Part shown: one piece after another, positions 1,544 to 33,524 of the stretch
Position numbering within the stretch: position 1 is the stretch's first letter
Layout: every line of letters begins with the position of its first letter
Assembly: GCA_963763115.1 (NCBI GenBank)
Contig: CAVXNM010000027.1
Location: 70,703 to 134,702, forward strand
Direction: 5' to 3'
DNA length: 64,000 nucleotides
Source of the DNA: an uncultured Gammaproteobacteria bacterium
GTDB lineage: Bacteria; Pseudomonadota; Gammaproteobacteria; UBA9214
Notes under the pieces: generated by a model
The model's database searches: none
Seen by the model: only the letters and a program-made list of their open reading frames with translations
What the model was told of the DNA's origin: nothing
Program-made: the position numbers and the translations under genes

Positions 1544-2007
1544 GGTGTTACTCCTCCGCTTGCGGTGCCATCAGCGCCGTTTTTGTGAGCTGTCTTGAGC
1601 GCGTCGGCTACTTCCGGCGGCATGTATTTCTCGTCGTGTTTGGCGAGCACTTCCTCGGCGATGAACAGGTTGCCATCCTGCAGTCTTCCCCGCGCCACGA
1701 TGCCCTGTCCCTCGCGGAACAGGTCGGGCAGGATGCCGGTGTACTGCACCTTGATAGTCTCGGCGTAGTCGGTGATATCGAAGGTTACGGTCAACCCGTC
1801 CGGCTGGCGTTTGACGCTGCCGTTGGTGACCAGCCCGCCGACCCGGATCAGGTGTCCGGTCGGGGCCTCGCCACCCGCCACGGCGCTGGGGGTGTAGAAG
1901 AACATCAGGTTTTCGTTGAAGGCCTTGAGTGCGACGGCGATGGCGACGCCGACGCCGGCGACCATCATGGCAATCAGGATCAGGCGTTTTCTGCGTTTTG
2001 GTGTCAT
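1540..2007 (-). CDS. ccmE: Heme chaperone CcmE
   Basis: 155 aa with an N-terminal TM anchor, an OB-fold-like core and the C-terminal LAKHDEKYMPPEV motif (heme-binding His/Tyr). Sits in ccm operon order. Confidence 0.95.
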   Translation of the reverse strand: MTPKRRKRLILIAMMVAGVGVAIAVALKAFNENLMFFYTPSAVAGGEAPTGHLIRVGGLVTNGSVKRQPDGLTVTFDITDYAETIKVQYTGILPDLFREGQGIVARGRLQDGNLFIAEEVLAKHDEKYMPPEVADALKTAHKNGADGTASGGVTP

Positions 2008-2174
2008 GTGGTTCTCCTCGCGCGGCGTGCGCTGCGCGCGATATCAGCCAGCAGCTTCCTGCGCTGCCGCGCCGGCAGCAGGATATTGGCCAGCAGGACG
2101 ATCAGGGCGATGCCGTAGGACGTCCACACGTAGAACGCGTATCCGCCCATGTTCAGGAATTCATTCAGACTCAT
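2004..2174 (-). CDS. ccmD: Heme exporter protein CcmD
   Basis: Small single-TM protein (MSLNEFLNMGGYAFYVWTSYGIALIVLL...). ATG at 2174 overlaps the ccmC stop (ATGA), and the stop overlaps the ccmE start. The track ORF begins 27 nt upstream at 2201. Confidence 0.85.
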   Translation of the reverse strand: MSLNEFLNMGGYAFYVWTSYGIALIVLLANILLPARQRRKLLADIARSARRARRTT

Positions 2175-2908
2175 TTTGTCTCCGCAAGTTCTCTGACCCA
2201 CTGGGTGTTTCGCTCGCGCTCCAGCACTTCGCAGCGGGCGCGCATCAGTACCACCAGTGCATAATACAGTTTAAAGGCCACGGCCATCAGCAACAGGGGG
2301 ATCAGCATACTGATATCGATGGATGGCGCGCCGAGTTTGGTGACCGTTGCCCCCTGGTGAAGGGTGTTCCACCATTCCACCGAGAAGTGAATGATGGGAA
2401 TGTTGACCACGCCCACGATGGCGAGGATGGCGGTGGCGCGGGCCGCCGTGCGCTTGTCATCGACGGCGTTGTAGAGCGCGATGACGCCGAGGTAGAGGAA
2501 CAGCAGGATCAGCTCCGAGGTCAGGCGCGCATCCCATACCCACCAGGTTCCCCACATCGGCTTGCCCCAGAGCGAACCGGTGATCAGCGCGAGGAAGGTG
2601 AACGACGCCCCGATGGTCGCGCTGCTGATGGCGATCACTTCGGCCAGTTTGATGCGCCAGACCAGGCCGATAATGCCGGCGCCGGCCATGACCACGTAGA
2701 CGAACATCGACATCCATGCAGCCGGCACATGGATGAACATGATGCGGTAGCTGTCGCCCTGCTGGTAATCCGGCGGCGCCTTGATCAGGCCGTAGTAGAG
2801 TCCGGCAAGGATGAACAGCAGGCAGGATACGCCCAGCCACGGAATGAGCCGGCCGGCGATGTTGTAGAAGTATCGCGGCGAGGCCATCTTGTGAAAGAAC
2901 TGCATCAT
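2171..2908 (-). CDS. ccmC: Heme exporter/handling protein CcmC
   Basis: 245 aa polytopic membrane protein with WGKPMWGTWWVWDARLTSE (WWD motif). Collinear with E. coli CcmC as I remember it. Confidence 0.95.
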   Translation of the reverse strand: MMQFFHKMASPRYFYNIAGRLIPWLGVSCLLFILAGLYYGLIKAPPDYQQGDSYRIMFIHVPAAWMSMFVYVVMAGAGIIGLVWRIKLAEVIAISSATIGASFTFLALITGSLWGKPMWGTWWVWDARLTSELILLFLYLGVIALYNAVDDKRTAARATAILAIVGVVNIPIIHFSVEWWNTLHQGATVTKLGAPSIDISMLIPLLLMAVAFKLYYALVVLMRARCEVLERERNTQWVRELAETK

Positions 2909-2929
2909 GGGATTTTTTCCTGATTATTT

Positions 2930-3141
2930 CACCGCAGAGGCGCAGAGGACGCAGCGAGATTTATCAAACGGGTACCATGAAAACTTGATATATAAACTTT
3001 TGGAGCGGGCTTGCCCGTGAATGTGTCGTTCACCAAAACCGTATTCGCGGGCAAGCCCGCTCCTGCAGGTGAAAGCTCAATCATTCGTTGTGCCCAACTA
3101 TTCATTGTCTGGTTTCTCCGCGTTCTCAGCGTCTCTGCGGT
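2930..3141. repeat. MITE-like element of family A (CACCGCAGAG-type inverted ends) with a nested REP pair, inserted between ccmC and ccmB
   Basis: The left end 'caccgcagaggcgcagaggacgcag' (2930-) is inverted at the right end '...gcgttctcagcgtctctgcggtt' (to 3141). An internal inverted pair 'gagcgggcttgcccgtgaa...ttcgcgggcaagcccgctc' lies at about 3004-3072. Related copies occur at 4643, 36838, 51608 and 54374. Confidence 0.8.
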
Positions 3142-3164
3142 TGGCGCATTTATACCGCATCACT

Positions 3165-3848
3165 TCAACTCAGGCTGATGCGCAGAGCCGCAGCCGTAGC
3201 CGGCGGCGACAGGCTCAGGGCCAGGACCAGTAGCGCGCTGATGAACAGCAGGTGAGCGGAAACCGGCAGGCCGGCAGCGGCCGTATCAACCGCGCTTGCG
3301 GCGAAGATCAACAGCGGGACGTACAAGGGTAGCACGAGCAGTGACAGAATCATCCCTCCCTTGCGCAGTCCTACGGTCAGGGCGACACCCACGGCGCCGA
3401 GGAGGCTAAGCACCGGCGTACCCAGCAACAGGGTGAGCATCAGGATTCGGATGCCGTCCCCGGTCAGACCCAGCAGCACGCCCAGCAGGGGAGAGACCAG
3501 CAGCAGCGGCAGGCCGGTGACCAGCCAGTGGGCGATCACCTTGGCCAGAACCAGGATCGACACCGGATGGGAACTCAGCAGAAACTGTTCGAGCGTGCCG
3601 TCCTCGAAGTCGGAACGGAAGATATTGTCCAGCGACAGCAGGGCGGCGAGCAGGGCGGCTACCCAGATGACGCCCGGGCCGATGGCCTGCAGCAGGTTGG
3701 GGTTGGCGCCGACCCCGAGCGGAAACAGGCTGGTGACCAGAATGAAAAACAGCAACGGGTTGATCATCTCGGCACGGTGGCGCACCGCCAGGGTCAGGTC
3801 GCGTTTCAGCATCAGTGCGAACGCGCGGGTAAGGGAATCGGTACTCAT
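3165..3848 (-). CDS. ccmB: Heme exporter permease CcmB
   Basis: 227 aa, six predicted TM segments, typical CcmB N-terminus (LKRDLTLAVRHRAEMINPLLFF). Overlaps ccmA by 4 nt. Confidence 0.93.
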   Translation of the reverse strand: MSTDSLTRAFALMLKRDLTLAVRHRAEMINPLLFFILVTSLFPLGVGANPNLLQAIGPGVIWVAALLAALLSLDNIFRSDFEDGTLEQFLLSSHPVSILVLAKVIAHWLVTGLPLLLVSPLLGVLLGLTGDGIRILMLTLLLGTPVLSLLGAVGVALTVGLRKGGMILSLLVLPLYVPLLIFAASAVDTAAAGLPVSAHLLFISALLVLALSLSPPATAAALRISLS

Positions 3849-4483
3849 GCGGACAGGTTGATGTGATGCACCGGGGTGTTGACCAGATTGACGTTATGGT
3901 GCGAGGTCATCGCCAGCATGCCGCCTTTACGGGTATGTTCTTCCAGCAGAACCTCGATCAGTCCGATCCCGTGCACATCGAGCGAGGTAAACGGTTCGTC
4001 CAGGATCCACAGAGGCGCATCGACCACCAGCAGGCGGGCGAGCGCCAGCCGGCGCTGCTGCCCGGCCGAGAGATTGCGTGTCAACACGTCCTCGTAACCG
4101 TACAGGTCGACCTGTTCCAGCACCGTCTCCAGCGCCGATTCCCCGGGTTTGCCCAGGGCGCGCGCCACGGCGAGGTTTTCCAGTGGCGTCAGGTCCTGCT
4201 TGATGCCGTCGCGGTGCCCGACATAAGCCGTGTGTTCATGGTAGTCGGGCCCCAGGCGGCTGATGTTCTTACCGCACCAGTTCACGCTCCCGGCATCCGG
4301 CAGGCGGATGCCGCACAGGATGCGCAGCAGGGACGTCTTGCCGCTGCCGTTACGGCCTTCCAGCACGAGCGCCTGACCGGCTTCAAGCCGGAACGCCAGG
4401 TCACGAAACAGGATGCGGTCATCGCGAATGCACTCCAGGCCGTCGGCCTCGAGTGTCAGCATGTTGTCGAACGATCGGGTCAC
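3845..4483 (-). CDS. ccmA: Heme exporter ATP-binding protein CcmA
   Basis: Walker A GRNGSGKTS, ABC signature LSAGQQRR, Walker B LWILDEP. First gene of the ccm operon. Confidence 0.93.
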   Translation of the reverse strand: MTRSFDNMLTLEADGLECIRDDRILFRDLAFRLEAGQALVLEGRNGSGKTSLLRILCGIRLPDAGSVNWCGKNISRLGPDYHEHTAYVGHRDGIKQDLTPLENLAVARALGKPGESALETVLEQVDLYGYEDVLTRNLSAGQQRRLALARLLVVDAPLWILDEPFTSLDVHGIGLIEVLLEEHTRKGGMLAMTSHHNVNLVNTPVHHINLSA

Positions 4484-5279: not shown

Positions 5280-6695
5280 ATGGACGCTAAAACTACCCAT
5301 ACCGCACATTCGGTTCCTTTCGAACTGCAATCGCTGGTGGACTGTCACGAAAACCCGTTTGTCGTGGTCGATCGCGACTACCGTATCGTGGCGATCAACA
5401 GGGCCTATGAAAAACTCTACGGTGCCGGGCGAGAATTCGCCGTGGGTCAGTACTGCTACAAGGTCAGTCACGACAATGATGCCCCGTGCTGTCGCTCCGG
5501 TGAGGACTGTCTGCACGAGAAACTGTTCAAAAACGGTACCCAGACTTCCTGCCTGCATTTCCACTACGACGAACAACACCGCATGCACCAGGTGCGGGTG
5601 ACGGCCTATCCCTTGCGCAGTGGCGACGGGGAACTCTACATGGGGGAGCTGATCGAGCCGATTTCATCGCTGGAACAGGACAAGACGGGCTGCAGCCGCA
5701 TGGTGGGTCAGGCCCGTACGTTTACTGCCTGCATGGAACAGCTCAAGCTGGTGGCGGCGACCGCGGCGCCGGTGCTGCTGCAGGGCGAGACCGGTACCGG
5801 CAAGGAACTGGCCGCAAGCTTCATTCACAGCCACTCCCCGCGTCGTGAACGGCCCTTTCTCACCGTGGACTGTACCTCCTTGACAGACAGCCTTTTCGAG
5901 GCGGAGGTCTTCGGCCATGCCCGTGGTGCGTACACCGGCAGCGTCGGAGAGAAAGCCGGCCTGTTCGAACAGGCCAACGGCGGCACCCTGTTTCTCGATG
6001 AAGTGGGCGAATTGCCCATGAACCAGCAGGCGAAGCTTTTGAGAATACTGGAAACCGGGCAATACCGGCGGGTCGGGGGGCGCGGTAATCGCAAGGTTGA
6101 TGTGCGCGTTATCTGCGCCACCAACCGGCACCTGTGGGAGGCCGTCCAGGCGACCAACTTCCGCGAGGATCTCTATTACCGTATCGCCTGTCTGACCGTG
6201 CGCCTGCCGAATCTGCGCGAGCGTCTCGAGGACATACCGGTGCTGGCGAACAGCCTGCTGGAACCGGTCAACCTCACGATGAGGCGGCGGTTTGCGCTGG
6301 CGCCGGATGCCATGGACCGTCTGAAGACCTATCACTATCCCGGCAACATACGTGAGTTGCGCAATATCCTGTACGTCGCCGCGACCCACAGTACCGATGA
6401 AATGATCCACGCCGGCGTGATTGACACCGTGATTGGTCAAATGACGTGCAACCAGGCGTCGCCGAAGTCGTCAGCGGACGAGTCGGCCACGCCGCCTGCG
6501 CCCGCGGAATCTCCAGTCGGACCAATTCAGACACGGCGGAACGGTAACGGATGCAGTTCGCTCGTCGACGTCGAGGCGCGGCACATCAGGGAACTGCTCG
6601 ACCGTTATACCGGCAACCGCCGCCGTGTGGCCAGCGATCTCGGAATCAGCGAACGCACCCTGTATCGCAAATTGAAGAAGTACGGGTTGACCTGA
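5280..6695 (+). CDS. Sigma-54-dependent transcriptional activator (bEBP): N-terminal Cys-rich PAS-like sensor, AAA+ sigma-54 interaction domain, C-terminal Fis-type HTH; no receiver domain
   Basis: Walker A GETGTGKE, Walker B LFLDEVGEL, GAFTGA-loop variant GAYTGS, C-terminal HTH 'RRRVASDLGISERTLYRKLKKYG'. The N-terminal 130 aa is PAS-like and carries CYKVSHDNDAPCCRSGEDC. Confidence 0.9.
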   Translation: MDAKTTHTAHSVPFELQSLVDCHENPFVVVDRDYRIVAINRAYEKLYGAGREFAVGQYCYKVSHDNDAPCCRSGEDCLHEKLFKNGTQTSCLHFHYDEQHRMHQVRVTAYPLRSGDGELYMGELIEPISSLEQDKTGCSRMVGQARTFTACMEQLKLVAATAAPVLLQGETGTGKELAASFIHSHSPRRERPFLTVDCTSLTDSLFEAEVFGHARGAYTGSVGEKAGLFEQANGGTLFLDEVGELPMNQQAKLLRILETGQYRRVGGRGNRKVDVRVICATNRHLWEAVQATNFREDLYYRIACLTVRLPNLRERLEDIPVLANSLLEPVNLTMRRRFALAPDAMDRLKTYHYPGNIRELRNILYVAATHSTDEMIHAGVIDTVIGQMTCNQASPKSSADESATPPAPAESPVGPIQTRRNGNGCSSLVDVEARHIRELLDRYTGNRRRVASDLGISERTLYRKLKKYGLT

Positions 6696-6823
6696 GTACC
6701 CGCAGAACTGCCTGCTAACGTTTTCAGGATGCGGTAGCCGAGGAAGATCAGAATAGAGTAATGCAGTCGTCGGTCCAGCTGTTTACGGGAATGCCCATCT
6801 CATCTGCCACAATAACGGACTGG

Positions 6824-6860
6824 CAGATATGACAGGTAACCTGTCATATCTGTCATGACA
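6824..6860. promoter_or_regulatory. Candidate upstream activator sequence: 14-1-14 palindrome followed by a TGTCATGACA palindrome
   Basis: 'cagatatgacaggt a acctgtcatatctg' spans 6824-6852 and 'tgtcatgaca' spans 6851-6860. The same ATGACA(GG)/TGTCAT half-sites recur at 5161-5250, upstream of the activator gene. Confidence 0.5.
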
Positions 6861-6976
6861 TGCCGGTGCGATAGACAACCCGCAATTGAATATGTTTGCT
6901 GATAAGAATTAATTATCTGGTTGATATTCCAGTCAGAATTGTTACAGCACGTCGCTCTCTTTTATGTGTTGGTAGT

Positions 6977-6991
6977 TGGTATATTAATTGC
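6977..6991 (+). promoter_or_regulatory. Candidate sigma-54 (-24/-12) promoter
   Basis: 'TGGTATATTAATTGC' has GG at 6978-6979 and GC at 6990-6991, exactly 10 nt apart (GG-N10-GC). It lies about 120-150 bp downstream of the palindromes with AT-rich DNA in between, the classical UAS-to-promoter geometry. Confidence 0.45.
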
Positions 6992-7638
6992 CTTGTTCTT
7001 TATACACGGAATTACTCGTTTGTATCCCGGTGGCCGGGGTTGAGAATATCACCGAGAGGCTTTGGGATATGAAGAATTATTACATTACTCAAACTACACG
7101 TTATCTTCACATTTCATTCGTTGGTGTTTCCTGACGGGCTGTTCCGGCGTTTAGTGAGGTGTATTGCGCAGGCAGTGTGGTATTTTGCAAAAATTGTGCT
7201 AGTGTCTTACGAACAAAGGGTCGACCCGGATATAACGACATCAGCAACGACCGTAGAAAATAACGTAGATTCCCGCAGGAAATATAGTTCCATAACAAGT
7301 GCGGGAGATTGAGGAGCAGAATTGCATCATGGGCAGAAAACTCATTCCTGGAATGAGGAACGGGTCTTTCTCGTTCGCATTCATTAACCCTGTGTCGTGG
7401 CGCTCACCGTCCGGGTCGGTCTCGAAATCGCCCAAGGCGGAAATGGCGGCAGCGTCAGGTACGCGAACTGCCGCTCCGGCAAACTCAAAACCCGATTACA
7501 GACATCCCACCTCAAGATCCAGCGCATCGGCGGATGCACCAGGCAATACACGACCAGTCGTGACCATCACGGTTCTCTCAATGCTTAACATGAAGGATGT
7601 ACCAATGCCCAGGCAGACATTTGTCAGGAGGAGCAATA

Positions 7639-10600
7639 ATGAAAATGCCATCAGGTAGCTGTACCTTTTTTGCACGCCTAGTTATCTCCATAGTTACCGG
7701 AATCGCACTGGCGGCCCTTGCCGCGACGGCGGATGCCAAGAAGAATAAACCACCCGTGCCGCCGTTCGGTTGCTCGATCATGGACCCCGGTGAGATCCTA
7801 ATGAATACCCCGGTGGATATGACCGCCATGCTCGAAGGTGGTGCCACGCCATACAAGAAGGTGAAGTGGAAATTCGCCAAGAAGAAGAAGGCAAATCCGA
7901 ATAAGGTGGAGACAACGGATGTGGAACCGGGCGCCGTCACGGCGACGACAACCTTCAGTAAAGCCGGATCGCAAAACGTCGTCCTGATCGTCAAGGATCA
8001 ATATAAGAAGACCTGCAAGGCCAGTTTGACTGTGGCAGTCGTCGAGGAGTCGCCGCCTGTCACTGGCGTGCCTACGGCACGCGGTGACACCTACGCGACC
8101 CCGATCGGGAAAGAGCTGACGGTGGGGGCTTCGCGCGTCTCGGGCGTGCTCTACAATGACTTCGATACCGACCCGGACACCGGCGCGAATCTCGGCAATG
8201 CGGGTCTTACCGTCGTCCAGGATAGTGACCCGGCGCATGGCACGGTACACCTGCATGCCGACGGTTCGTTTACGTATACACCCGACGGGACTCTAAACGA
8301 CAACGATAACGACAGTTTCACCTATCACGCCGTGGATAGCGACGCCAACTCATCTGACGTGGCGATTGTGAATATCCACATTACGGCCGACCAGCCTGAC
8401 TTCAAGATCCTGATGAACTATGAACTCGGCATGCACTGCACCGGCTTCGAGTTCTCCTACTGTTGTGTGCTGCCCCCGTACAACTCGATCGTGGCACAGG
8501 TGGTGAAGTCACAGACACCCGGTTTCCCGACTTCCAATGCGGACTATCCGCGACTGCTTACGGCCGACCCGGACAACGGTCTGGATGGACTGGGCCGCGA
8601 GACCGTGCTGCGCGATTACGACAGTGACGGGAACTTCAACAAGTACTACCTGGAGTATTACCACGACATCATGCCGCGCCTTGAAGGCAACATGCCCGGT
8701 TCATTCAATTCTTCGGCGGGGAAGGACACCCTCATCAGCGCCGTCGAGGGCAACTCGCTGCTCTACTGGAATACCCCGTATGATTCGGCGCAGGTGGATA
8801 CCGACGGGTCGATCACCGGGGTGCCCGGCAAGCTGGTCACCGGCACCTACGCCGGGGAATTTAATGTAGTGTTGGGTGATGGGTCTTTCCAGACCCCCTG
8901 TAAAACCGGTCCGGACGGGTGTACCGACAACTTCGCCAATGGCTGGCTGAACCACTTCTATATCTACCAGGACCTGGAAGGGAGCAATCCCGCCGACACC
9001 AGCCTGGAGATCGACAAGATGCGTCTCGGGGTGGCCAACATGGTCGAGTATCCATCCGATTCCGGCGCGGCCCTGCAGCCTATGGGACCGACCGGCAACG
9101 ATGCGGGATTCGATAACGTGCTGACCTTCTCCGGCGACACCGGCACGGTGGTGTACACCCAGATGAAAGTGCTGGAGAACCTGCCGATCATGCTGACCGC
9201 ACCGAAGATCTGGGAGGCCCTCGGCCTGCCGCTGACGCCGTTCGAGGATTCGATCGACTTCTTCGCCGATCCGGGTGCGGTGGACGAGGATACGATCCGT
9301 CCCTTTGTGGCGATGAAGGCGCAGTTGTTTGAAGCCAACTGCGATGAATCGACGGGCGACTGCACCAAGGGTGCTGCGGTTATGAGCAATGGACGGCCAG
9401 TGCTTGGTTTCGGCTCGGCGCCGATCGATATCCCGAACTGTGAGCGTTGTCACTCGGCACCGGCCTATCAGGCGGATGGTGTCACGCCGAACGTCAACAG
9501 CCCGAGTTACGTGAGGCGACAGGACGGACCAGACCCTTACGTTGGACCGTCCGGCGAGACCCTCGAGGCGATGATCGATCTGGAGGTCAACTACTGGAAG
9601 GCCTTCTACGACCTGGATACCACCATGGGTGACACGGACTGGTATGCGCGGCTCAAGGGTGCGGCCATCAGTATCGAGGTCATGCATGACTTCGATAACG
9701 GTACCAACTTCACCGCCAACTATCCGACCTCCGGTCTGAATCCGGACGGCACGCCTGAACCACCCAATGACATTTTGGGCATGCCAGCTGAAAAGGCCAT
9801 GATCATGCAGAACACCCGCATGGGTCATGAATCGGTCATCTGCCAGAAGTGCCACGCCGACAACGTGATCGCGGTAGTCAAGTCGGCGAACATCGGCGCC
9901 AGCGATGGCCCCCTCGTCCCGCCCATCTCGGAGGCGATCCATAACGCTCACAGGGCAAACAGCGCGGGTGGAGTGATCGTCTTCAACGACGCCCTCGGGC
10001 GCTTCGGCGGCTGCCAGGGCTGTCACCCGGCGCACCGCTCCGACGGCGTGATGGACAACTATCCCATCACGGTTAACGGTGATAACGTCAGAGCCGAAAG
10101 CGACAACCGCCTGGGTGCGGGTGGCTGCTTCGTCGGCCGTGACGTGCACTCCAACCCCTTGAAGGACGTGGATGGAGCGGAGACGCCGGAGCACCTGAAT
10201 ACGGTGGGGCAGTGGCTGAAGGACAATGTCGCGCGCAACCAGGCGGGACTGGGTAACAGCGATGAGGACTACCGGGGCATCTGGTGCACCAACTGCCACA
10301 CCCAGCTCAGCCAGGAGCTGTGGCGCACCGAGGACTGCAATGACCTGATCCACAGCAATCCAAACCAGGTCTCGTCTCCGGATTGCCTGGTCAACCCGCG
10401 TGCGGCGGGACCCGGCCTCAGTGATGTCGCCGCTGCAGTCGGACTGACCGAGCAGGAGGCGATCAACTACCTTGATCCGAAGAACCCGGACGTGCAGCCT
10501 CCAGGTGTGCCTCAGGTCACGGTGGACAGGACCCATGCGGCCTGGGATCCGTTGATTGACGATGCCAACTTGGCGACCATCGAGGTGGCCGCGGCAGATT

Positions 10601-11652
10601 CCCCCGGGAGCTGTGCTCCCCTGTCAAGCGTGTTCAACGCAACCTTCAACGTCAATGTCTGTGTCAGTCTGGACGGGGATGGGGATCCGAGTGTCAATAT
10701 CCTGACCTTCTGCACGACGGACGACTGTGTGAAACAGGTGAATGATCCGGCAAACAGAACCGTGCCGGGCAGCTGGCGATATCCCGAAGCGGGTACCGTC
10801 GACCGTGTTTCGGGCTTCGCCGGTACGGGGACAGTTGGTGCGGCGGTGCCCTTCTCGGCAGCGGACGACGCCCGCGACCATTGGCTGTCAGCGGGTGAGC
10901 CCCACTGCGCGGATTGCCATGCGGCACCCTACACGGAGCAGAGCGGTAACATCAACCCGTTCCCGCCCTTCAACTACCCGGCGAAGGCGGGCCTGAATCG
11001 CTACTCGTTCGGCCATCAAGGCATCACTTGCCAGGGCTGCCACGAGTCGATCCACGGTCTCTATCCGGTGGGGCCGGCGATCGATAACACGACCTACGCG
11101 CAGGCGGCGGCACTGAACGCAGACGGCTCCCATGGTCCGCTGAAGTGCGGTACCTGCCACACGGTCAATGGCAACGGCATCCCGAGCTGGATTTCCCCAT
11201 TAGGTGACGGAGCCGTCGGCAACCAGATCAACGGCAGTTTCGACAATGCCGTGGGTTGGGCGCATACCTACACGGCCGAGGCCAATGTGCTCAACACGAC
11301 ATGCCAGAACTGTCACGGCGTGGATGGTGATTTTGACAGCAGCACTGTCAACACCAACAGCGTCCCGGCGGACTGGACCAAAGTCGCTAGTCACGAACCG
11401 GCATTCCTGAAACATTCATTCAGGGGATATACTTCGCGGCTGATGATGGACAATGCCGAGACGCTCGTCTCGGGGTCGGTCGACGGAACAACCGACGGTT
11501 CGGACGGCGTCTGCCTCGGTTGTCATGCAAACTTCAGTGGTGGAGTGAGTTGCAGTGACGGGTGGAAGCAGCACCTGACCCAGGGACGCGTCGCCGAATC
11601 GGTCTGGGAACAGGTCTCCGAAATGAAGACCGGCTCACTCTGCGGCTGGTAA
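7639..11652 (+). CDS. Large secreted multiheme cytochrome c (nine CxxCH sites) with N-terminal Ig-like/cadherin-like domains
   Basis: RBS AGGAGG about 6 nt before ATG 7639 (the track ORF starts at 7597). Signal peptide ...IALAALAATADA|KK. A PKD/Ig-like segment is followed by a cadherin-like segment (GVLYNDFDTDPD...GSFTYTPDG...DSFTYHAVD). CxxCH sites sit at ORF residues 615, 749, 806, 897, 1104, 1145, 1184, 1236 and 1306 (CERCH, CQKCH, CQGCH, CTNCH, CADCH, CQGCH, CGTCH, CQNCH, CLGCH). Confidence 0.9.
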   Translation: MKMPSGSCTFFARLVISIVTGIALAALAATADAKKNKPPVPPFGCSIMDPGEILMNTPVDMTAMLEGGATPYKKVKWKFAKKKKANPNKVETTDVEPGAVTATTTFSKAGSQNVVLIVKDQYKKTCKASLTVAVVEESPPVTGVPTARGDTYATPIGKELTVGASRVSGVLYNDFDTDPDTGANLGNAGLTVVQDSDPAHGTVHLHADGSFTYTPDGTLNDNDNDSFTYHAVDSDANSSDVAIVNIHITADQPDFKILMNYELGMHCTGFEFSYCCVLPPYNSIVAQVVKSQTPGFPTSNADYPRLLTADPDNGLDGLGRETVLRDYDSDGNFNKYYLEYYHDIMPRLEGNMPGSFNSSAGKDTLISAVEGNSLLYWNTPYDSAQVDTDGSITGVPGKLVTGTYAGEFNVVLGDGSFQTPCKTGPDGCTDNFANGWLNHFYIYQDLEGSNPADTSLEIDKMRLGVANMVEYPSDSGAALQPMGPTGNDAGFDNVLTFSGDTGTVVYTQMKVLENLPIMLTAPKIWEALGLPLTPFEDSIDFFADPGAVDEDTIRPFVAMKAQLFEANCDESTGDCTKGAAVMSNGRPVLGFGSAPIDIPNCERCHSAPAYQADGVTPNVNSPSYVRRQDGPDPYVGPSGETLEAMIDLEVNYWKAFYDLDTTMGDTDWYARLKGAAISIEVMHDFDNGTNFTANYPTSGLNPDGTPEPPNDILGMPAEKAMIMQNTRMGHESVICQKCHADNVIAVVKSANIGASDGPLVPPISEAIHNAHRANSAGGVIVFNDALGRFGGCQGCHPAHRSDGVMDNYPITVNGDNVRAESDNRLGAGGCFVGRDVHSNPLKDVDGAETPEHLNTVGQWLKDNVARNQAGLGNSDEDYRGIWCTNCHTQLSQELWRTEDCNDLIHSNPNQVSSPDCLVNPRAAGPGLSDVAAAVGLTEQEAINYLDPKNPDVQPPGVPQVTVDRTHAAWDPLIDDANLATIEVAAADSPGSCAPLSSVFNATFNVNVCVSLDGDGDPSVNILTFCTTDDCVKQVNDPANRTVPGSWRYPEAGTVDRVSGFAGTGTVGAAVPFSAADDARDHWLSAGEPHCADCHAAPYTEQSGNINPFPPFNYPAKAGLNRYSFGHQGITCQGCHESIHGLYPVGPAIDNTTYAQAAALNADGSHGPLKCGTCHTVNGNGIPSWISPLGDGAVGNQINGSFDNAVGWAHTYTAEANVLNTTCQNCHGVDGDFDSSTVNTNSVPADWTKVASHEPAFLKHSFRGYTSRLMMDNAETLVSGSVDGTTDGSDGVCLGCHANFSGGVSCSDGWKQHLTQGRVAESVWEQVSEMKTGSLCGW

Positions 11653-11700
11653 CTGGAGGGGTTCCGCCCGTTCAGCGAGATGGAGCGGGCACACCAACCA

Positions 11701-11735
11701 ATGGAGGGGAAACGTGTTTCCCCTCCATTTCTTAA
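11701..11735 (+). terminator. Rho-independent terminator after the multiheme cytochrome gene
   Basis: Perfect hairpin 'atggaggggaaac gt gtttcccctccat' followed by 'ttctt'. Confidence 0.75.
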
Positions 11736-11840
11736 CAGAGTCAGCAATCCTCCGGGATAGTTGTTCACGGCGCGGCCAACGGCTGCCTGCCCGGTGGCAC
11801 CCTGAGGTTTGAGATTCAGCAAACGATGAGGGCAACAATA

Positions 11841-13340
11841 ATGAAAGTAATACTTGCGTTTATGACCGCGCTGCTCATGCTCCCGGTTTGCGCGACCGGC
11901 ACGTTGGCCAGTGCCGCCGACACGGAGCCCAGGGCCACTATGGTCGATGATGTGATCGCCCGGGTGGGCGATCAGACGATCACCTTCAGCGAGATCAACA
12001 CCGCGCTCAACAGCTCGGCGATCGTCGGCTTATCCATCCCGGCACTGGGCACACCGGAGCGGGACACGACGCGGATTGTGCTGCTGGACCGGTTCGTCAG
12101 CGCCAACCTGCTGTATCTCGATGCGCTCAAGCAGGGTGTCGACAAGGATCCGGGCTACCAGAGGGCGATCACCCGCTTCTCCGATGCGATCCTGGCCGGG
12201 CTTTATCGGAAACGTAACCAGGGGGGCGACATTCCAATCAGCGAGGAAGAGGTACAGGCCTACTACAAGCAGTATGTGGCGCCGGATACGGAATTGACCG
12301 CTGATCTGCATCTGCAGATCGAATCGACACTGCGCCGGCAGAAACTCCATGAACGGCTGGCAATGGCCGAGAAGACCTTGCGTGACGATGTCAAGGTGGT
12401 GATCCATCCGGAAAATCTGGCGCTCAAGGATGACGGGTACCGTGCGGACAGCACACCGCTGGCCGAGGTCGGTACGGAAACCATCACCTGGGGTCAGGTC
12501 AGTGACAGGATCATTGCCGCCGGCAAGGGGGCGATGATGACCGACCCGTCGGCCTCGGAGGACCAGGCGCGCCGGGATGCCCTGGAACACCAGATCGACC
12601 TGCGTATCATGGTGCAAAAGGCCAGGTCGGCGGGAATCGAGGACGACCCGTTGTACAAGAGACGGATGAAGGAGTACCAGAAAACGCTGCTGATCAATCG
12701 GCATCGCGAGCAGCTGGCAAAGACCATGGAACCCACGGCACAGGAACTCAAGGCCTGGTATGAAGCGAACAAGAAGCGCTTCGTCGTGCCGGAGGCTCGC
12801 AAGCTGCAGATGGTCGTCGTCAAGACCAAAGAGGAAGCCGAGAACCTCAAGGGCAGGATCGAAGCGGGTGAGCTGACCATCTACCAGGCGGCACGCGATC
12901 ATTCCATCGCCGCAAAGGCCAAGCAGGATCTGGGCGAGGTGGGCTGGGTGAAGCAGGGTGAGGTGGTGCCGGCGCTGGATCAGGTGATTTTCACGCTGGG
13001 ACCGGATGAGATCGGTGGTCCGGTGGAGACGCCGGCCGGCTGGCACCTGGTGAAGGTGCTCGAGGTGAAAGAGGCCAAGTTCACGGACTTCTACGATGAG
13101 ACGACGCGCAAGCAGGTTCGGCGCAAGTATCTGCATGAGAAAATGGATGCCTACACCGCGGAACTGCGCAAGCACGAGTTTCCGGTGGAGGTTTACCAGG
13201 AGCGCCTGGTGCAGCTCGAGCAGCAGGAGGCGGACATGGTGAAGTCACTGGCGGAGAAGGCTAAGCAACCGGGGTCAGTGACACAGAAACGCATCGAGGA
13301 ATTGCAAAAGCTCATGAAACCACCGCCACCGCCCATGTGA
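11841..13340 (+). CDS. Secreted PpiC/parvulin-type peptidyl-prolyl cis-trans isomerase (SurA/PpiD-like)
   Basis: Signal peptide MKVILAFMTALLMLPVCATGTLASA. Rotamase core '...LQMVVVKTKEEAENLKGRIEAGE...DLGEVGWVKQGEVVPALDQVIFTLGPDEIGGPVETPAGWHLVKVLE'. RBS GAGGG 8 nt before ATG 11841 (the track ORF starts at 11826). Confidence 0.85.
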   Translation: MKVILAFMTALLMLPVCATGTLASAADTEPRATMVDDVIARVGDQTITFSEINTALNSSAIVGLSIPALGTPERDTTRIVLLDRFVSANLLYLDALKQGVDKDPGYQRAITRFSDAILAGLYRKRNQGGDIPISEEEVQAYYKQYVAPDTELTADLHLQIESTLRRQKLHERLAMAEKTLRDDVKVVIHPENLALKDDGYRADSTPLAEVGTETITWGQVSDRIIAAGKGAMMTDPSASEDQARRDALEHQIDLRIMVQKARSAGIEDDPLYKRRMKEYQKTLLINRHREQLAKTMEPTAQELKAWYEANKKRFVVPEARKLQMVVVKTKEEAENLKGRIEAGELTIYQAARDHSIAAKAKQDLGEVGWVKQGEVVPALDQVIFTLGPDEIGGPVETPAGWHLVKVLEVKEAKFTDFYDETTRKQVRRKYLHEKMDAYTAELRKHEFPVEVYQERLVQLEQQEADMVKSLAEKAKQPGSVTQKRIEELQKLMKPPPPPM

Positions 13341-13560
13341 GGAGTGACAGTTCAGACAGGGGTCTAACCGGCATAAACGATTCACCCCTGTTCAGTCCTG
13401 GCAATCTGCGGAGTGCGGGCACGCGACCCTTCACCAGGCCCTCCGGCACGGTGATCAATACCACACACGATCGGGACAACGACAACGCCGGCAACCGATG
13501 GTAACGGTAACGTGTATTCTACGCTCCGTGGCATCACCCTGGCGAACTGAGCGCGGTCGG

Positions 13561-14088
13561 TTATTTCGCCTCAAGATTAGATGCCCGTGAGCTGCCGATC
13601 AGCTGCTCGATGGTCTCAATCATCTCCGGGTCATCCCAGTTGCGCGGTCCGTACGCGACATAGTGAACGCGGCCTTGCGGATCGACCAGAAAACTGGTCG
13701 GATAGAGATCGATTCCCCAGTCGTAAGCGGTCTGGCCTTCACGGTCCAGCAACAGGGGAAAATGAACTTTCGCCCTGGCGGCGAACTTCCACACCGTGCC
13801 GGGCGATTCCTCGACATTGACAGCGAGGAGGGTGAAGGGTTTTCCGGTCATGGCCTCCTGCAGGCGCTGCAGGCTGGGCATCTCCATCACACAGGGTCTG
13901 CACCAACTGGCCCAGAAATTCACCAGCACCACCCGGCCGCGATAATCCTGCAGCGCATGGACCTTGTGTCCCAGGTCCTCCAGTGACAGCGCGGGTGTCC
14001 GGGTGAAGCCACGGTAGGGCTCCAGTTGTCCTGCCGCAGCGCAGGACAGATGCAACAACATCAGCAGGCCAGTGAGGAATTTGATCAT
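13561..14088 (-). CDS. TlpA/ResA-like periplasmic thiol:disulfide oxidoreductase (thioredoxin fold)
   Basis: 'VVLVNFWASWCRPCVMEMPSL' carries a WCxxC motif. Probable start at the internal ATG 14088 gives the signal peptide MIKFLTGLLMLLHLSCAAAG. The 72 codons upstream in the track ORF look non-coding. Confidence 0.85.
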   Translation of the reverse strand: MIKFLTGLLMLLHLSCAAAGQLEPYRGFTRTPALSLEDLGHKVHALQDYRGRVVLVNFWASWCRPCVMEMPSLQRLQEAMTGKPFTLLAVNVEESPGTVWKFAARAKVHFPLLLDREGQTAYDWGIDLYPTSFLVDPQGRVHYVAYGPRNWDDPEMIETIEQLIGSSRASNLEAK

Positions 14089-14231
14089 GAGAGTTCCGGT
14101 AATTGCCTTTATGCCGCCGGCCCCGATCTGCATCACAGACGTCGATTGCCCAGGGCAGGCAGGACGCACAACCAGGGTCCGGCTTCGGTCTGCGCGCACT
14201 ATGTCAACACAAAGCCGTAACCCCGCCGTAC

Positions 14232-14546
14232 ATGAAGCATATCCAAAATCAGAGCACCCCGCCACGCGGCCGGATCCGGGTTGCCGCGCTTCTGCTGGCG
14301 GCACTGGCCGGTGGGGCCGTCATGGTAGTGGAGCTGGATGTGGCGCGCAGCCTGACGCCGGTACTCGGCGGGTCCATTTCGGTCCGGGCCATCGTCATCA
14401 TCACCACAATGCTGGCGTTGATCCCGGTGGTTGTCCTGCGACCGGGTCCAGGCGTGACGTCCCTGATTATCAGCGGCATACTGAAAAGGCCCAGCAGCCG
14501 GGCTCCGGGACCGGGAAGCGCATCGGGGAATTCCAGAAACTGCTGA
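14232..14546 (+). pseudogene. Probable gene remnant: N-terminal TM fragment resembling spermidine-synthase-family membrane proteins, fused to unrelated sequence
   Basis: 'RVAALLLAALAGGAVMVVELDVARSLTPVLGGSISVRAIVIITTMLALI' resembles the first TM pair of that family and then homology stops. In another frame the last 70 nt (14478-14548) are about 70% identical to the 3' end of the PPIase gene (13255-13322). Confidence 0.3.
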
Positions 14547-14693
14547 AGCAGTAAGCGCGTTATAATGGTACCCGGGATGCGGGAATAACGGTGCAGGGAG
14601 AAGATGAGACCGGGAACCGGTCGTGAGTCTGGGCTGCCATGCGCCGTTTGCAGGTCGAAAGGTCGGGCCCGTAACTCCTGAGCACGAAGAGTC

Positions 14694-14718
14694 GGATTCC
14701 CGCTTTCGCGGGAATGAC
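14694..14718. repeat. REP-like palindrome, family C ('ggattcccgctttcgcgggaatgac')
   Basis: Perfect stem tcccgc/gcggga. A second copy at 39313-39341 is nested inside the family B MITE. Confidence 0.7.
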
Positions 14719-14768
14719 CGGCATAATCAGAACGTCCGTGATTCGGCGTCGATCGGTAACGTCGCCGG

Positions 14769-15233
14769 ATGAGGCGGGAAGATAGACACATGCGGATGCC
14801 ACTCATAACCTGGTATACACTTTCGCGCTTGACTGCCGGCGTCTTCCTGCTGGTCATTGGTGCACTGGCTGTTCAGGCCGACGATCTCATGTCACCGGTC
14901 ATACCGGCAGCGGAAGTCAAGGAGCGGCTGGACACGCCACAAGCGCCGCTCATGGTGGACCTGCGCACACCGCCGGAGTTCGCTGTTGCGCACCTGCCCG
15001 GCGCCGTCAACATTCCGCTGTCGGAGCTGGTGAAACGTCTGGATGAAGTGCGTCCTGCCGAGGACCATGACCTTCTCATCTATTGTTTCAACGGCTCCCG
15101 GACGCGGCAGGCCGAGCCGCTGCTCTATGCGCATGACATCAGTAATTTTTACCACCTCGAAGGTTCGCTCGAGGGATGGCTGCTGAAAAACTATCCGATC
15201 GAGAAGGGCGGCGTGCACCGAAAGACCTGGTAA
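14769..15233 (+). CDS. Rhodanese-domain sulfurtransferase, membrane-anchored or secreted
   Basis: Active-site loop 'IYCFNGSRTRQ' (CxxGxR), an N-terminal hydrophobic segment, and 'PPEFAVAHLPGAVNIP' typical of rhodanese. The exact start is uncertain (14769, 14790 or 14796). Confidence 0.8.
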   Translation: MRREDRHMRMPLITWYTLSRLTAGVFLLVIGALAVQADDLMSPVIPAAEVKERLDTPQAPLMVDLRTPPEFAVAHLPGAVNIPLSELVKRLDEVRPAEDHDLLIYCFNGSRTRQAEPLLYAHDISNFYHLEGSLEGWLLKNYPIEKGGVHRKTW

Positions 15234-15377
15234 ACGGGAATGACCGCCATCCGGTGCATGTCCCAGTCCAGACTCTCGACCGGTTCCCGGTCTCTCTGCC
15301 TCCCTGCACCGCCACCCCTGAATTTTTTAACGTGGTCGATGCAGTTTGAGTGGTTGCGATTACATGCGCAAGCTGAT

Positions 15378-15517
15378 TGCAGGAGCGGAATCGCCCGCGA
15401 ACTTTCTTGGTTAGTCACCACCGTGTTCGCAGGTGAACCCGCTCCTTCATGGTAATTCGATAATTCGTGGTGCCCTGGATTTGATTGTCTTACTGCAGGA
15501 GCAAGCCCGCTTCGACA
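15378..15517. repeat. REP-like elements, family D (TGCAGGAGCGG...CCCGCGAA type)
   Basis: Inverted pair 'tgcaggagcggaatcgcccgcgaac' (15378-15402) and 'gttcgcaggtgaacccgctcc' (15425-15445), plus a single copy 'ctgcaggagcaagcccgcttcgac' (15494-15517). Same family as 3004-3072. Confidence 0.7.
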
Positions 15518-15548
15518 AAAAGATTGAATGCGGATTTTTCGGATCGTC

Positions 15549-16007
15549 CTATTTTTCGGTGTCCGCACCGATCATCTGCTGCAACTCGCCGATGTGCTCC
15601 TGCAGGCGCTGCATGGCCAGCTGGTTGCGCTGCTGGACCAGCTCGGGCAGGCGCTCAAGCACCTTCTGGCCGGTGGGCGAACTGTAAAAGGCGTTCATCT
15701 CGTCGAGTTCCGCCTCGGTGAAAGTTTGCAGGTACATGTCCGTTAGATCGACTTTCAGGGCTTGCCAGCCGATGTATTTCCGGAGGAAGGCGCGCAGCAC
15801 CTCCCTGTGCTCCGTCAGGGCGGGATTCTGCGTGATTTGCAGGGCGAGAACACCGTCGACGCTGTCCTCGATCAACCGCTGCATATGCGTCAGTTCGAAG
15901 AGCCTTGCCACGGCCTCCCGGTGGCTGTCCGGTCCGGCGTGAGGCGGGGTTGGGCAGGCAAAAACCAGCAGCAAGGCCAATATTCCGGTCAGGGTGCGGG
16001 AATTCAT
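15549..16007 (-). CDS. Periplasmic DUF2059-like protein
   Basis: ATG 16007 with RBS GAGGAG. Signal peptide MNSRTLTGILALLLVFA, and 'ELDEMNAFYSSPTGQKVLERLPEL' typical of DUF2059. Confidence 0.7.
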   Translation of the reverse strand: MNSRTLTGILALLLVFACPTPPHAGPDSHREAVARLFELTHMQRLIEDSVDGVLALQITQNPALTEHREVLRAFLRKYIGWQALKVDLTDMYLQTFTEAELDEMNAFYSSPTGQKVLERLPELVQQRNQLAMQRLQEHIGELQQMIGADTEK

Positions 16008-16293
16008 GTGCAGTCTCCTCGGTCGACTATCGCGCAACAGGCAGAAGTGCTACTGTTGGTCGACGATAATAATAAAGAAAAGGCCATAGCGTGAATTTCG
16101 AAATGAATCTGTCTTGCAGGAGCCCGTTCCTGCAAGGAGAAGTATCAATCGTTCGAGGTTCTGTAACACAAATAACCAAAAACTGTTGATCGCTTGGCCC
16201 GGTCATCCTGCACAAGCCGTCTTGCTGTTTCGAAATGTTCAGGAGGACGTATCGGCAGGAAGTTGGCGGCGCTATTTTCACCAGGAGGCATTC

Positions 16294-16752
16294 ATGCAAC
16301 TCGACAAGCCGCTCCGGACAGCATCCGGAAAAAGACCCGGATCAGGGGATGCCACCTGCACAGAGCCGTGTGTGACGGGTAGGCTGTCACAATCGCTTGC
16401 GCTACTGATGCTCGGCGGAATTCTCGGCGTTGGCGGTGCCTTGGGAACGGCAAATGCCACACAGTTCAACCCGCCCGGGCTGGATGGTTACAGCCTGAGC
16501 GATGAACACGATGCCGATGGCGATGGCGATGGCGTCAAGGAGACGCATGTCCAGCAGTATTTCAACTCGAACGGTGATAGCATCTACAGCATGACCACCA
16601 ATGGCCATCTGTGGGCCTGGAGTCTGGAGACGAAGGGTGTATCGACCAGCGGACCGATGAACTACGTCATACGCGACAGCGATTGCGACGGCGTGTTCGA
16701 CGAGGTCTACAGTCTGGAGGACAAGTATTACCTCCCCGACTGCGTCAAGTAG
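16294..16752 (+). CDS. Hypothetical secreted or membrane-anchored protein with an acidic DADGDGDG motif
   Basis: RBS AGGAGG 5 nt before ATG 16294, a hydrophobic segment LALLMLGGILGVGGALGTANA, and coding-like composition. I recognise no family. Confidence 0.55.
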   Translation: MQLDKPLRTASGKRPGSGDATCTEPCVTGRLSQSLALLMLGGILGVGGALGTANATQFNPPGLDGYSLSDEHDADGDGDGVKETHVQQYFNSNGDSIYSMTTNGHLWAWSLETKGVSTSGPMNYVIRDSDCDGVFDEVYSLEDKYYLPDCVK

Positions 16753-16839
16753 TGGTGCCGAGAAGAGGACTTGAACCTCCACGGGGTTACCCCCACTAGC
16801 ACCTGAAGCTAGCGCGTCTACCAATTCCGCCATCTCGGC
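16753..16839 (-). tRNA. tRNA-Leu (anticodon CAG)
   Basis: The reverse complement GCCGAGATGGCGGAATTGGTAGACGCGCTAGCTTCAGGTGCTAGT...GAGGTTCAAGTCCTCTTCTCGGCACCA folds as a class II tRNA. Anticodon loop is TTCAGGT and CCA is encoded. Confidence 0.93.
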
Positions 16840-16945
16840 CGTGCAGCCGCGAACTCTACCCGCAGATATTGTGCTTGTCAATTTGCGGCTGGCGGGCACA
16901 CTTTAGCCTTCATTTAGCCTTCATAAAGAGTAAAATGCCGGTCCC

Positions 16946-29747: not shown

Positions 29748-29913
29748 GACGAGGGTCGGGATCCCGATTTCAGGGCGTCATCATCGCACAACTCGACAGG
29801 GCATTGAAGTGAGGGTGTGTACTCGAGGGCATCGAGAGACATTTCCGTGCCGGGATTTCCTGTTCCGGTTATAATTCCCCGCCTGATTCCGCATCAACCA
29901 CGGTTACCCGTCC

Positions 29914-31281: not shown

Positions 31282-31306
31282 AACAGGTTTCCGCGATGCA
31301 AATAAA

Positions 31307-32157: not shown

Positions 32158-32192
32158 TTCCGTACCTGCCGGATGATTCCGTCCGGGGTGAG

Positions 32193-32729: not shown

Positions 32730-32741
32730 GCCGAGGGTAAC

Positions 32742-33494: not shown

Positions 33495-33524
33495 CGGTCT
33501 ACGAATGCAACAGAGGATTGAGTC

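Follow-up and report, generated by a model that had tools for sequence, protein, structure and literature searches.

The stretch of DNA analyzed here, hereafter the window, comprises 64,000 nucleotides (nt) from an uncultured Gammaproteobacteria bacterium of the UBA9214 lineage (contig CAVXNM010000027.1 of assembly GCA_963763115.1, positions 70,703 to 134,702 of the forward strand). At positions 7639–11652, on the plus strand, it carries the gene of a nonaheme c-type cytochrome of 1337 amino acids (aa) plus stop, recognized by the translation of its open reading frame (ORF), its nine conserved CxxCH motifs and its family membership. The protein is the immunoglobulin (Ig)-like-domain-bearing member of a conserved, widespread and so far uncharacterized cytochrome family, and the exact protein is already on record, without a name, from a 150-kb contig. 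Its ATG at 7639 is preceded by the ribosome-binding site GGAGGAG, and L021 and L011, the closest loci, have kept this start. Because this codon has GGAGGAG and aligns with the start codons of the two nearest relatives, a start at 7597, which would lengthen the ORF by 14 codons, is unlikely. The first 33 residues (7639–7737, plus strand) read as a Sec-type signal peptide, MKMPSGSCTFFARLVISIVTGIALAALAATADA followed by KK, with an Arg in the n-region, a hydrophobic core and an AxA site, and with predicted cleavage between ADA and KK; by the same reading, no lipobox occurs in this N-terminus, whose signal ends in ATADA.

The mature protein is divided into segments that all lie on the plus strand. 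The N-terminal module (aa 34–139; 7738–8055) is the most variable part and has no Pfam match, while a weak Pfam match to PKD occurs within an orthologue (P0005). The next module (aa 140–253; 8056–8397) is Ig-like, is found in 27 of 35 close relatives and scores above the Pfam gathering thresholds (GA) for Big_9 (34.8 bits; GA 23.6) and Cadherin_4 (31.3 bits; GA 25.1) at aa 140–247, which assigns it at the level of the domain only; NCBIfam gives only weak adhesin-repeat matches at the Ig modules (BapA/LapF-type, tandem-95, and VCBS). It is followed by a conserved, heme-free and beta-rich domain of ~345 aa (aa 254–599; 8398–9435), made up mostly of strands in the AlphaFold2 (AF2) model and matching nothing in Pfam or the PDB, which holds ELGMHCTGFEFSYCC with C267, C275, and C276 (the GMHCTGF..YCC motif). 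Invariant in this domain are the GMH (M265-H266), the three Cys residues just named and H439, and H342 is nearly so. The first heme cluster (aa 600–905; 9436–10353) carries hemes 1–4, with CxxCH at 601, 735, 792, and 883, and includes the invariant loop GGC(830)FVGRDVH(837). An inserted second beta domain (aa 906–1080; 10354–10878), with AF2 strands at core residues 728–774 and 817–822, a conserved C1025-x4-C1030 pair (108 of 108 homologues) and a DGDGD motif, separates it from the second heme cluster (aa 1081–1337; 10879–11649), which carries hemes 5–9 with CxxCH at 1090, 1131, 1170, 1222, and 1292.

Nine CxxCH sites compare with ~0.03 expected by chance from the Cys and His frequencies of the protein itself, and all nine are kept in 108 of 108 aligned homologues. 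A motif scan of the 1337-aa protein found no CxxCK, CxxxCH, CxxxxCH, or CX5-20CH, and hence neither the NrfA-type CxxCK nor the MccA-type CX15CH site. Successive sites are 134, 57, 91, 207, 41, 39, 52, and 70 aa apart. The overall spacing looks sparse because the inserted beta domain creates the 207-aa distance from heme 4 to heme 5, and the arrangement is that of a 4-heme and a 5-heme cluster, each of ordinary density. Pfam Cytochrome_C7 (PF14522) matches aa 1126–1226 with 28.0–30.5 bits (GA 24.8) and does so in 34 of 35 relatives; the match is to a generic heme-packing motif and denotes no functional family. The first-pass annotation, a reading of the letters made before these searches, had listed the signal peptide ending in ADA before KK, the adhesin-type sequence behind it, a heme-free region with an odd Cys cluster (aa ~254–600), nine canonical heme sites and the lack of CX15CH and CxxCK, all of which are borne out; its description of the heme packing as sparse gives way, on gap lengths and the AF2 model, to the two clusters split by the inserted domain. 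The profile hidden Markov model searches that it had proposed recovered the Ig modules and Cytochrome_C7, and no model in Pfam or NCBIfam covers the core of the protein.

The AF2 model of the core (core residue 1 being aa 250) was built from 150 sequences, 79 of them heptaheme relatives, and reached a predicted local distance difference test score (pLDDT) of 82.2 and a predicted template modeling score of 0.86. It places a beta-rich domain at core residues 1–350, a helix/loop region with hemes 1–4 at 350–650, the second beta domain at 665–825 and a helical region with hemes 5–9 at 830–1088. An earlier model, made from a 35-sequence alignment of close homologues, had a pLDDT of 49.5; it was discarded and had no part in the fold search. 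Averaged over 107 close homologues, identity to the window protein is 0.74 for hemes 5–7, 0.71 for the heme-free domain, 0.65 for hemes 1–4, 0.57 for the Big_9 module, 0.48 for hemes 8–9, 0.42 for the inserted beta domain, which is the least conserved segment of the core, and 0.15 for the first 139 aa. The heme-free domain is thus about as conserved as the best heme segment and far more so than the inserted beta domain.

Among the aligned close homologues, the non-heme residues C267, C275, C276, C830, C1025, C1030, and C1335 are invariant. The other non-heme Cys residues co-occur as pairs (900/916, 568/575, 992/1008, and 421/428), and this pairing suggests a disulfide-rich protein. C267, C275, C276, and C830 are jointly present in 245 of 254 family proteins, and the only two intact proteins without this quartet miss all four residues and, in addition, H342, H439, and H1165. 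Such joint presence and loss indicates that the four form a coupled site, which would be either two disulfides or a metal-binding or active site.

A search of 5.8 billion clustered proteins returned 746 matches to the window cytochrome. The best 120 of them are all at least 52% identical to it across no less than 62% of the query, with coverage of about 90% or more for most, and nearly all are unnamed or labelled “Ig domain,” “VCBS,” “PKD,” or “hypothetical.” With two peptide patterns as bait, tblastn confirmed 157 loci in a set holding one genome for each GTDB species. The hosts of the best 80 of these are mostly sulfur oxidizers, chiefly Thiogranum, Ectothiorhodospiraceae, Ca. Thiodiazotropha (symbionts of lucinids), Sulfuricaulis/Sulfurifustaceae, and Chromatiaceae, with a few from Desulfobacterales, Desulfocapsa, or Nitrospirota bins, and several genomes carry two or three copies. 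Some loci (L022, L031, L058, L073, and L076) whose identity to the gammaproteobacterial genes is 50–60% stem from bins that bear the labels Caldilineaceae, Bacteroidota, Methylomirabilis, or Halobacteria; they are probably products of binning contamination or recent transfer, and the taxonomic spread has to be read with care. Since an exhaustive HMMER scan of 1.84 billion representatives at 50% identity gave only 348 matches, the family is a compact one. Nonaheme members measure ~1000–1800 aa.

A heptaheme sister branch (e.g., P0143 and P0132) consists of proteins of ~800 aa with seven CxxCH arranged 4+3, which share the heme-free domain and hemes 1–7 with the nonaheme proteins at 32–50% identity. 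Both branches have the GMH(C)TGF..YCC beta domain and the cytochrome-PPIase-redoxin cassette (PPIase, peptidyl-prolyl cis-trans isomerase) described below. Hemes 8–9 and the C-terminal CGW are confined to the nonaheme branch, the heptaheme proteins stopping after heme 7; the latter also lack the Ig modules, have a shorter inserted domain, often carry a lipoprotein anchor and are often encoded beside a NapC/NirT protein and a diheme class I cytochrome. A profile search with the heptaheme branch gave 881 matches, the best 120 of which come from Sedimenticola, Endothiovibrio diazotrophicus, Ca. Thiodiazotropha, Gallionellaceae, Rhodocyclaceae, and similar groups and are all annotated as “hypothetical” or “cytochrome c3 family.” In the 150-sequence alignment, the window protein has the whole family signature, i.e., NYELGMH(C)TGF..Y(CC), a first heme of the form APIDIPNC-xx-CH and seven co-linear CxxCH, and its gene has the PPIase gene downstream. 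Rather than a one-off fusion of adhesin and cytochrome, the protein is, with 746 matches and 157 loci, part of a large conserved family. No paper on the nonaheme/heptaheme family was found in the literature on multiheme cytochromes, the host genera, PPIases and sulfur oxidation. Two family proteins are of unusual build: in P0157 (1037 aa), class I cytochrome c domains (74 bits) are fused to the heptaheme core, and in P0151 (1905 aa), the core is joined to a further C-terminal multiheme region, for 16 CxxCH in total, although an internal PEP-CTERM-like motif means that the latter may be a merged gene call.

The N-terminal region is the part in which family members differ most freely. Among 79 related loci, the part that joins the signal peptide to NYELGMHCTGF is missing in Desulfocapsa, Desulfobacterales, and one Chromatiaceae bin, whose proteins measure ~1000 aa. 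It is a linker rich in Asp, Glu, and His in Ca. Thiodiazotropha and one rich in Ser and Thr in Sulfuricaulis; further forms are TSP3-like repeats, long PKD arrays with a tenth heme and, in the window protein and Thiogranum, PKD plus Big_9/cadherin modules. The giant members of 1477–1827 aa (L008, L009, L012, L013, L014, L023, L059, and L062) carry this tenth CxxCH (..AGCQLCHG..) before the PKD arrays. In the heptaheme branch, a lipobox with a Ser/Thr/Ala-rich linker behind it occurs in 38 of 120 proteins, the +2 residue being in most cases one other than Asp, and only 6 of 120 nonaheme proteins show weak lipobox-like matches. Because it is replaced or absent in other family members, the region of aa 34–253 behaves, on comparison of the sequences, as a lineage-specific and interchangeable spacer or tether; the adhesin-like N-terminus is no defining trait of the family but one of several exchangeable forms. 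The same comparison bears on the idea that the protein is mainly an adhesin with incidental or structural hemes, or else a mis-assembled adhesin-cytochrome chimera. Metagenome-assembled sequence can indeed be chimeric, and the N-terminus does match adhesin-type models weakly. However, the junction between Big_9 and core (..DQPDFKI(L/M)MNYELGMHC..) recurs in many independent assemblies, the exact protein stands on the 150-kb contig mentioned above, and the nine heme sites and the core are strongly conserved while the Ig part is dispensable. The guanine-plus-cytosine (GC) content of the gene (0.600) is that of the window (0.603), and the window contains no paralogue of it; given this native composition and single occurrence, recent transfer or chimerism of the gene is not indicated. 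Since the architecture recurs in independent genomes, the adhesin or chimera explanation is effectively refuted and retains hardly any probability.

The surroundings of the gene were compared in 80 loci delimited by tblastn and in 79 loci by clustering of neighbors. Directly downstream, at 11826–13340 on the plus strand, lies the gene of an exported PPIase of the PpiC/parvulin type (504 aa; Pfam Rotamase_2/Rotamase), with a SurA-like N-terminal region and an N-terminus that reads as signal-like. A PPIase gene occupies this position in 70 of the 80 loci (68 of 79 by clustering), most of the others reaching the end of their contig, and no plus-strand terminator was found between the cytochrome and PPIase genes. 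On the opposite strand, at 13561–14304, follows a ResA/TlpA-like thiol-disulfide oxidoreductase (Pfam Redoxin/AhpC-TSA; NCBIfam ResA/TlpA), whose true start likely lies near 14088, giving a protein of ~175 aa. This redoxin is present in ~40 of 79 nonaheme loci and in 7 of 7 heptaheme loci; ResA/TlpA-like redoxins act in the periplasm. Three kb upstream of the cytochrome gene, at 1540–4483 on the minus strand, the translations identify ccmA-ccmB-ccmC-ccmE of the System I cytochrome c maturation pathway. Farther downstream, an exported single-domain rhodanese with the active-site Cys loop CFNGSR (14769–15233, plus strand; Pfam Rhodanese, NCBIfam PspE-like) recurs in 17–18 loci and, in 16 of 17, lies past the PPIase gene in the same orientation, and an exported DUF2059 protein (15549–16037, minus strand; Pfam DUF2059) recurs in 11–12 loci. 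Beyond the DUF2059 gene, the window holds housekeeping genes. At 16114–16752, on the plus strand, a predicted exported protein of small size, which has GDGDGV.ETH and SDCDG motifs and no Pfam or NCBIfam match, is encoded near the cassette in 16 related loci as well.

Apart from the family itself, no heme site occurs in the representatives of the neighboring ORF clusters common to at least four loci, and no porin, MtrA, or quinol dehydrogenase was recognized among the shared neighbor clusters of the nonaheme loci. The earlier remark that no MtrA/MtrB-like gene is adjacent thus extends from the window to the 79 related loci. In nine loci (L028, L031, L042, L048, L052, L054, L055, L056, and L061), the nonaheme and PPIase genes are continued by a heptaheme gene (770–800 aa) and the redoxin gene in a single operon with a divergent sigma-54 activator, and the two cytochromes of such an operon may work as a pair. 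The cassette of a Sulfuricaulis (L056; two-cytochrome operon at 7836–15536) is self-contained, with divergent activator, nonaheme, PPIase, heptaheme, and redoxin genes placed between gltX and TRAP-transporter genes. In the closest relative on a long contig (L001), the PPIase gene is followed at 15645–18329 by the gene of a second multiheme protein of 894 aa, missing from the window, which combines a CarboxypepD_reg domain with a clear match to the MtrC/MtrF II-IV model (55 bits).

Candidate electron partners appear beside the sister branch. The order cytochrome, PPIase, redoxin holds in each of the seven heptaheme loci that were examined. In three of the seven, a NapC/NirT tetraheme protein (232 bits, NCBIfam) and a diheme class I cytochrome of ~205 aa are encoded next to it, and a fourth has the diheme cytochrome alone. 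One heptaheme cassette (L085) abuts a complete ccm operon, its redoxin being additional to the CcmG-type redoxin of that operon, and Fe-S (Fer4_11) and NrfD genes lie 2–3 kb downstream in another sister locus (L084). The partner genes, together with the P0157 fusion, would connect the family core with the periplasmic c-type cytochrome and quinol pool. The proposal that hemes 8–9 are a fused copy of the sister diheme cytochrome was rejected, as BLASTP aligned the CxxCH motif only (E 0.007 over 20 aa); the functional analogy between the two has been kept.

Control by sigma-54 is suggested both by the neighboring regulator and by promoter sequences. The gene upstream of the cytochrome gene (5280–6695, plus strand; Pfam Sigma54_activat, PAS, and HTH_8) codes for a sigma-54 activator with an N-terminal PAS sensor and recurs in 25–35 loci. 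Its PAS domain has invariant C59, H64, C70, C77, and H95 (C-x4-H-x5-C-x6-C(P)H ... H-x-H), a Cys/His pattern that is invariant in 18 of 18 cassette-adjacent activators with 41–82% identity and that points to a thiol- or metal-based sensor. In 17 of 62 loci, against 0.03 expected, a canonical sigma-54 promoter (e.g., TGGCACGCAGATTGCT) precedes the cytochrome ORF by no more than ~300 nt. In the window, the strict sigma-54 consensus with up to two mismatches gave no plus-strand site upstream of the cytochrome gene; a candidate -24/-12 promoter, TGGTAT-N5-TTGCC with GG-N10-GC spacing, lies at 6977–6992 on the plus strand, ~650 nt before the start codon, and the aligned position of L021 reads TGGCAT-N5-ATGCC. 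About 130 nt upstream of this promoter, a perfect 12+1+12 palindrome (GATATGACAGGT-A-ACCTGTCATATC; 6826–6850), whose TGACA/TGTCA repeats are conserved in L021, is a candidate activator-binding site. The intergenic region from 6696 to 7638 has a GC content of 0.48, vs. 0.60 for the window. Its part between promoter and start codon (6993–7638) is unusually long, at ~650 nt, and well conserved with L021; within it lie a hairpin (CTCATTCC..GGAATGAG, ~7341–7362) and a 119-codon ORF of doubtful reality (7299–7658), and an Rfam scan of this long leader found no family at the gathering threshold.

No PDB sequence was matched by the window protein with phmmer, and the 150-sequence profile found nothing meaningful in the PDB (best, a cytochrome c7 at E 0.18). 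A Foldseek search of the PDB with the pLDDT-82 model, made with the whole chain as query, gave no match at E ≤ 0.001 (best, an unrelated adhesin at E 0.15) and retrieved no cytochrome, including MtrC, OmcA, MtrF, and UndA, multiheme folds being hard for such searches. The first-pass annotation had proposed that the protein fits no known cytochrome family; in agreement with this, no match to a characterized family arose by sequence, profile or whole-chain Foldseek, nor does Pfam or NCBIfam have a model for the core. Enzymes of the NrfA, Otr, and HAO types share with the window protein no CxxCK and no sequence, profile or fold match in the PDB. OcwA, the nonaheme surface cytochrome of Thermincola with its NrfA-like fold, is equal in heme count and is likewise matched by neither sequence, profile, nor Foldseek. 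An operon of SEEP-SRB1 and Desulfuromonadales codes for 16-heme and 26-heme cytochromes, a PPIase and a six-bladed beta-propeller and has been proposed to serve extracellular electron transfer (Skennerton et al., 2017, PMC5539420). It resembles the present cassette, by operon content alone, in joining large exported multiheme cytochromes to a dedicated PPIase, and differs in heme counts, in host groups and in the beta-propeller, which is absent here.

The outer-membrane cytochromes MtrC, OmcA, MtrF, and UndA of Shewanella offer the nearest likeness of layout. MtrC is built of beta-barrel I, pentaheme domain II, beta-barrel III, and pentaheme domain IV, with a CX8C in domain III (PMC9973256), and the AF2 secondary structure of the nonaheme core has the same beta / heme / beta / heme order, with a CX4C pair in its second beta domain that recalls this CX8C. 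Hemes 5–7 (aa 1088–1177) match part of the MtrC/MtrF model PF22113 (positions 82–166 of 176) with 28.7–30.0 bits (GA 30), as they do at E ≤ 0.001 in 28 of 35 relatives, a single partial match in the window protein and not two full-length ones. Sister proteins also show sub-threshold matches to the MtrC/MtrF II-IV model for hemes 2–4, which means that both heme clusters match it weakly among family members. These resemblances can be read as those of a cell-surface or extracellular conduit, the idea put forward in the first-pass annotation, anchored by its Ig stalk or secreted (e.g., by a type II system), that would exchange electrons with minerals, elemental sulfur, an electrode or a partner cell in the manner of MtrC/OmcA. 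The PKD, Big_9, cadherin, and TSP3-like units of the variable N-terminus, of kinds usual on extracellular proteins, would suit such a role, as would the lipobox and linker of 38 of 120 sister proteins, which make many of that branch lipoproteins like the MtrC group, and the MtrC-domain-positive protein encoded just downstream in L001.

On the other hand, none of the 79 nonaheme loci has a conserved mtrA/mtrB, porin, MtrA/DmsE-type decaheme, or secretion gene, and the window protein has a Sec signal without a lipobox. Its hemes are arranged 4+5 and not 5+5 (ten or eleven CxxCH), and its first beta domain, of ~345 aa, is one of the two most conserved parts, well above what would be expected of a passive barrel. 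Unlike the MtrC group, it comes with a dedicated PPIase, a redoxin and sigma-54 control, and these conserved helpers are a signal-bearing PPIase and a redoxin of a periplasmic class. The partners and fusions of the sister branch are periplasmic diheme class I cytochromes and NapC/NirT, some family members have no N-terminal module at all, and Foldseek retrieved none of the four Shewanella proteins. Taken together, these observations leave the surface conduit as a rather unlikely explanation, albeit one with a real share of the probability. Should the protein be a conduit only, it would be a porin-independent functional relative of MtrC-type proteins in hosts not known for extracellular electron transfer.

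The reading that we prefer, and to which we give somewhat better than an even chance, is that of a Sec-exported, Ccm-matured nonaheme cytochrome acting as a redox module on the periplasmic side, possibly tethered to the outer membrane or surface, and heading a sigma-54 cassette with dedicated helpers. The cytochrome gene would be the first gene of this sigma-54-controlled cassette, and the PPIase and ResA/TlpA-like redoxin would probably fold and thiol-manage a large, disulfide-rich protein with many cofactors. Electrons would pass along the heme clusters between two ends: on the one side, a substrate or partner that the conserved beta domain and the neighboring C830/H837 loop would recognize, and on the other side, a soluble c-type cytochrome or the quinol pool. 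Reduced or intermediate sulfur species are the leading guess for the substrate, a hint that comes from the sulfur-oxidizing hosts and from the exported rhodanese in the operon in 17 loci. The module may plausibly be an enzyme that acts on a sulfur compound.

Several points weigh against this periplasmic reading. No characterized homologue emerged from sequence, profile, or fold searches, and the proposed function rests on context. The nonaheme branch has no conserved redox partner gene beside it, the idea of the partner being borrowed from the seven sister loci, and only about 20% of the loci have the rhodanese. The four coupled Cys residues could be just two structural disulfides, as other Cys residues of the protein also come in pairs. 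Ig, PKD, and cadherin-like modules typically belong to extracellular proteins, and about one-third of the sister proteins are lipoproteins with outer-membrane-type +2 residues; because of these modules and anchors, surface exposure of family proteins has to be reckoned with.

Going a step further than the periplasmic redox module itself, the Cys/His cluster of the heme-free domain (C267, C275, C276, and C830; H266, H342, H439, H837, and H1165) might form a new catalytic site on the multiheme scaffold, at which a multi-electron conversion of inorganic or solid sulfur would feed the c-type pool. We hold this extension only tentatively and think it rather unlikely as it stands. If true, it would define a new family of periplasmic or surface enzymes of sulfur oxidizers, including the symbionts of lucinid clams, that accounts for a missing or alternative step of sulfur lithotrophy and has a new fold.

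A more specific version of catalysis takes the sulfite reductases MccA/SirA as its model, in which Cu(I) is bound by two Cys residues beside the active-site heme. Here, a catalytic heme with a Cys-bound metal (e.g., Cu(I)) or with the reactive thiols C267/C275/C276/C830 would convert sulfite, thiosulfate, or polysulfide in a multi-electron reaction, the PPIase would correspond to MccB, and cofactor insertion would be served by the TlpA-like protein keeping the thiols of the site in the reduced state. In operon logic, this system is the nearest: reportedly, mccB, a PPIase gene, follows mccA, and the large exported multiheme protein of the window similarly has a PPIase gene immediately after its own. 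Conserved extra Cys residues near a heme domain and sulfur-metabolizing hosts are further shared traits. The coupling in presence and loss of four Cys and three His residues, the redoxin that L085 has in addition to its CcmG-type redoxin, the Fer4_11 and NrfD genes near the L084 sister locus, and the rhodanese of 17 loci in sulfur-oxidizing hosts would also agree with such an analogue. However, MccA has eight hemes including one CX15CH, whereas nine CxxCH and no CX15CH are found here, and MccC (Fe-S) and MccD (NrfD-type) genes are absent from the nonaheme loci. The heme-free N-terminal beta domain and Ig modules have no counterpart in MccA, and phmmer, profile and Foldseek searches detected no similarity in sequence or fold to it or to any other multiheme enzyme of the PDB. 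The Cys quartet may consist of plain disulfides, and nothing points to an open coordination site at a heme. An MccA/SirA-type analogue is, on this evidence, distinctly less probable than either the conduit or the more general catalytic site.

The carriers of the family are ecologically important, comprising Ca. Thiodiazotropha in lucinids, Thiogranum/Ectothiorhodospiraceae of sediments, and Sulfuricaulis/Sulfurifustaceae, with the sister branch in Sedimenticola and Gallionellaceae. The conserved cassette of cytochrome, PPIase, redoxin, and Cys/His-sensor activator points to a regulated and specific redox function. Finding this function could add a redox step of sulfur or metals, explain part of the physiology of the symbionts and supply a new multiheme architecture.

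Two further features lie elsewhere in the window. At 28938–33869, ~17 kb from the cassette, a ccsA-like gene (so identified by comparison with L081) is followed by ffh, rpsP, rimM, trmD, and rplS. In L081, the heptaheme cassette directly adjoins the same ccsA-like/ffh-rplS block (13508–17968), which hints at a shared chromosomal neighborhood for the nonaheme and heptaheme branches. Lastly, an RtT RNA (Rfam RF00391; 45.6 bits, gathering score 45) lies at 62052–62196 on the plus strand, between the genes of a tRNA-Ser (61929–62019) and a tRNA-Arg (62531–62607).

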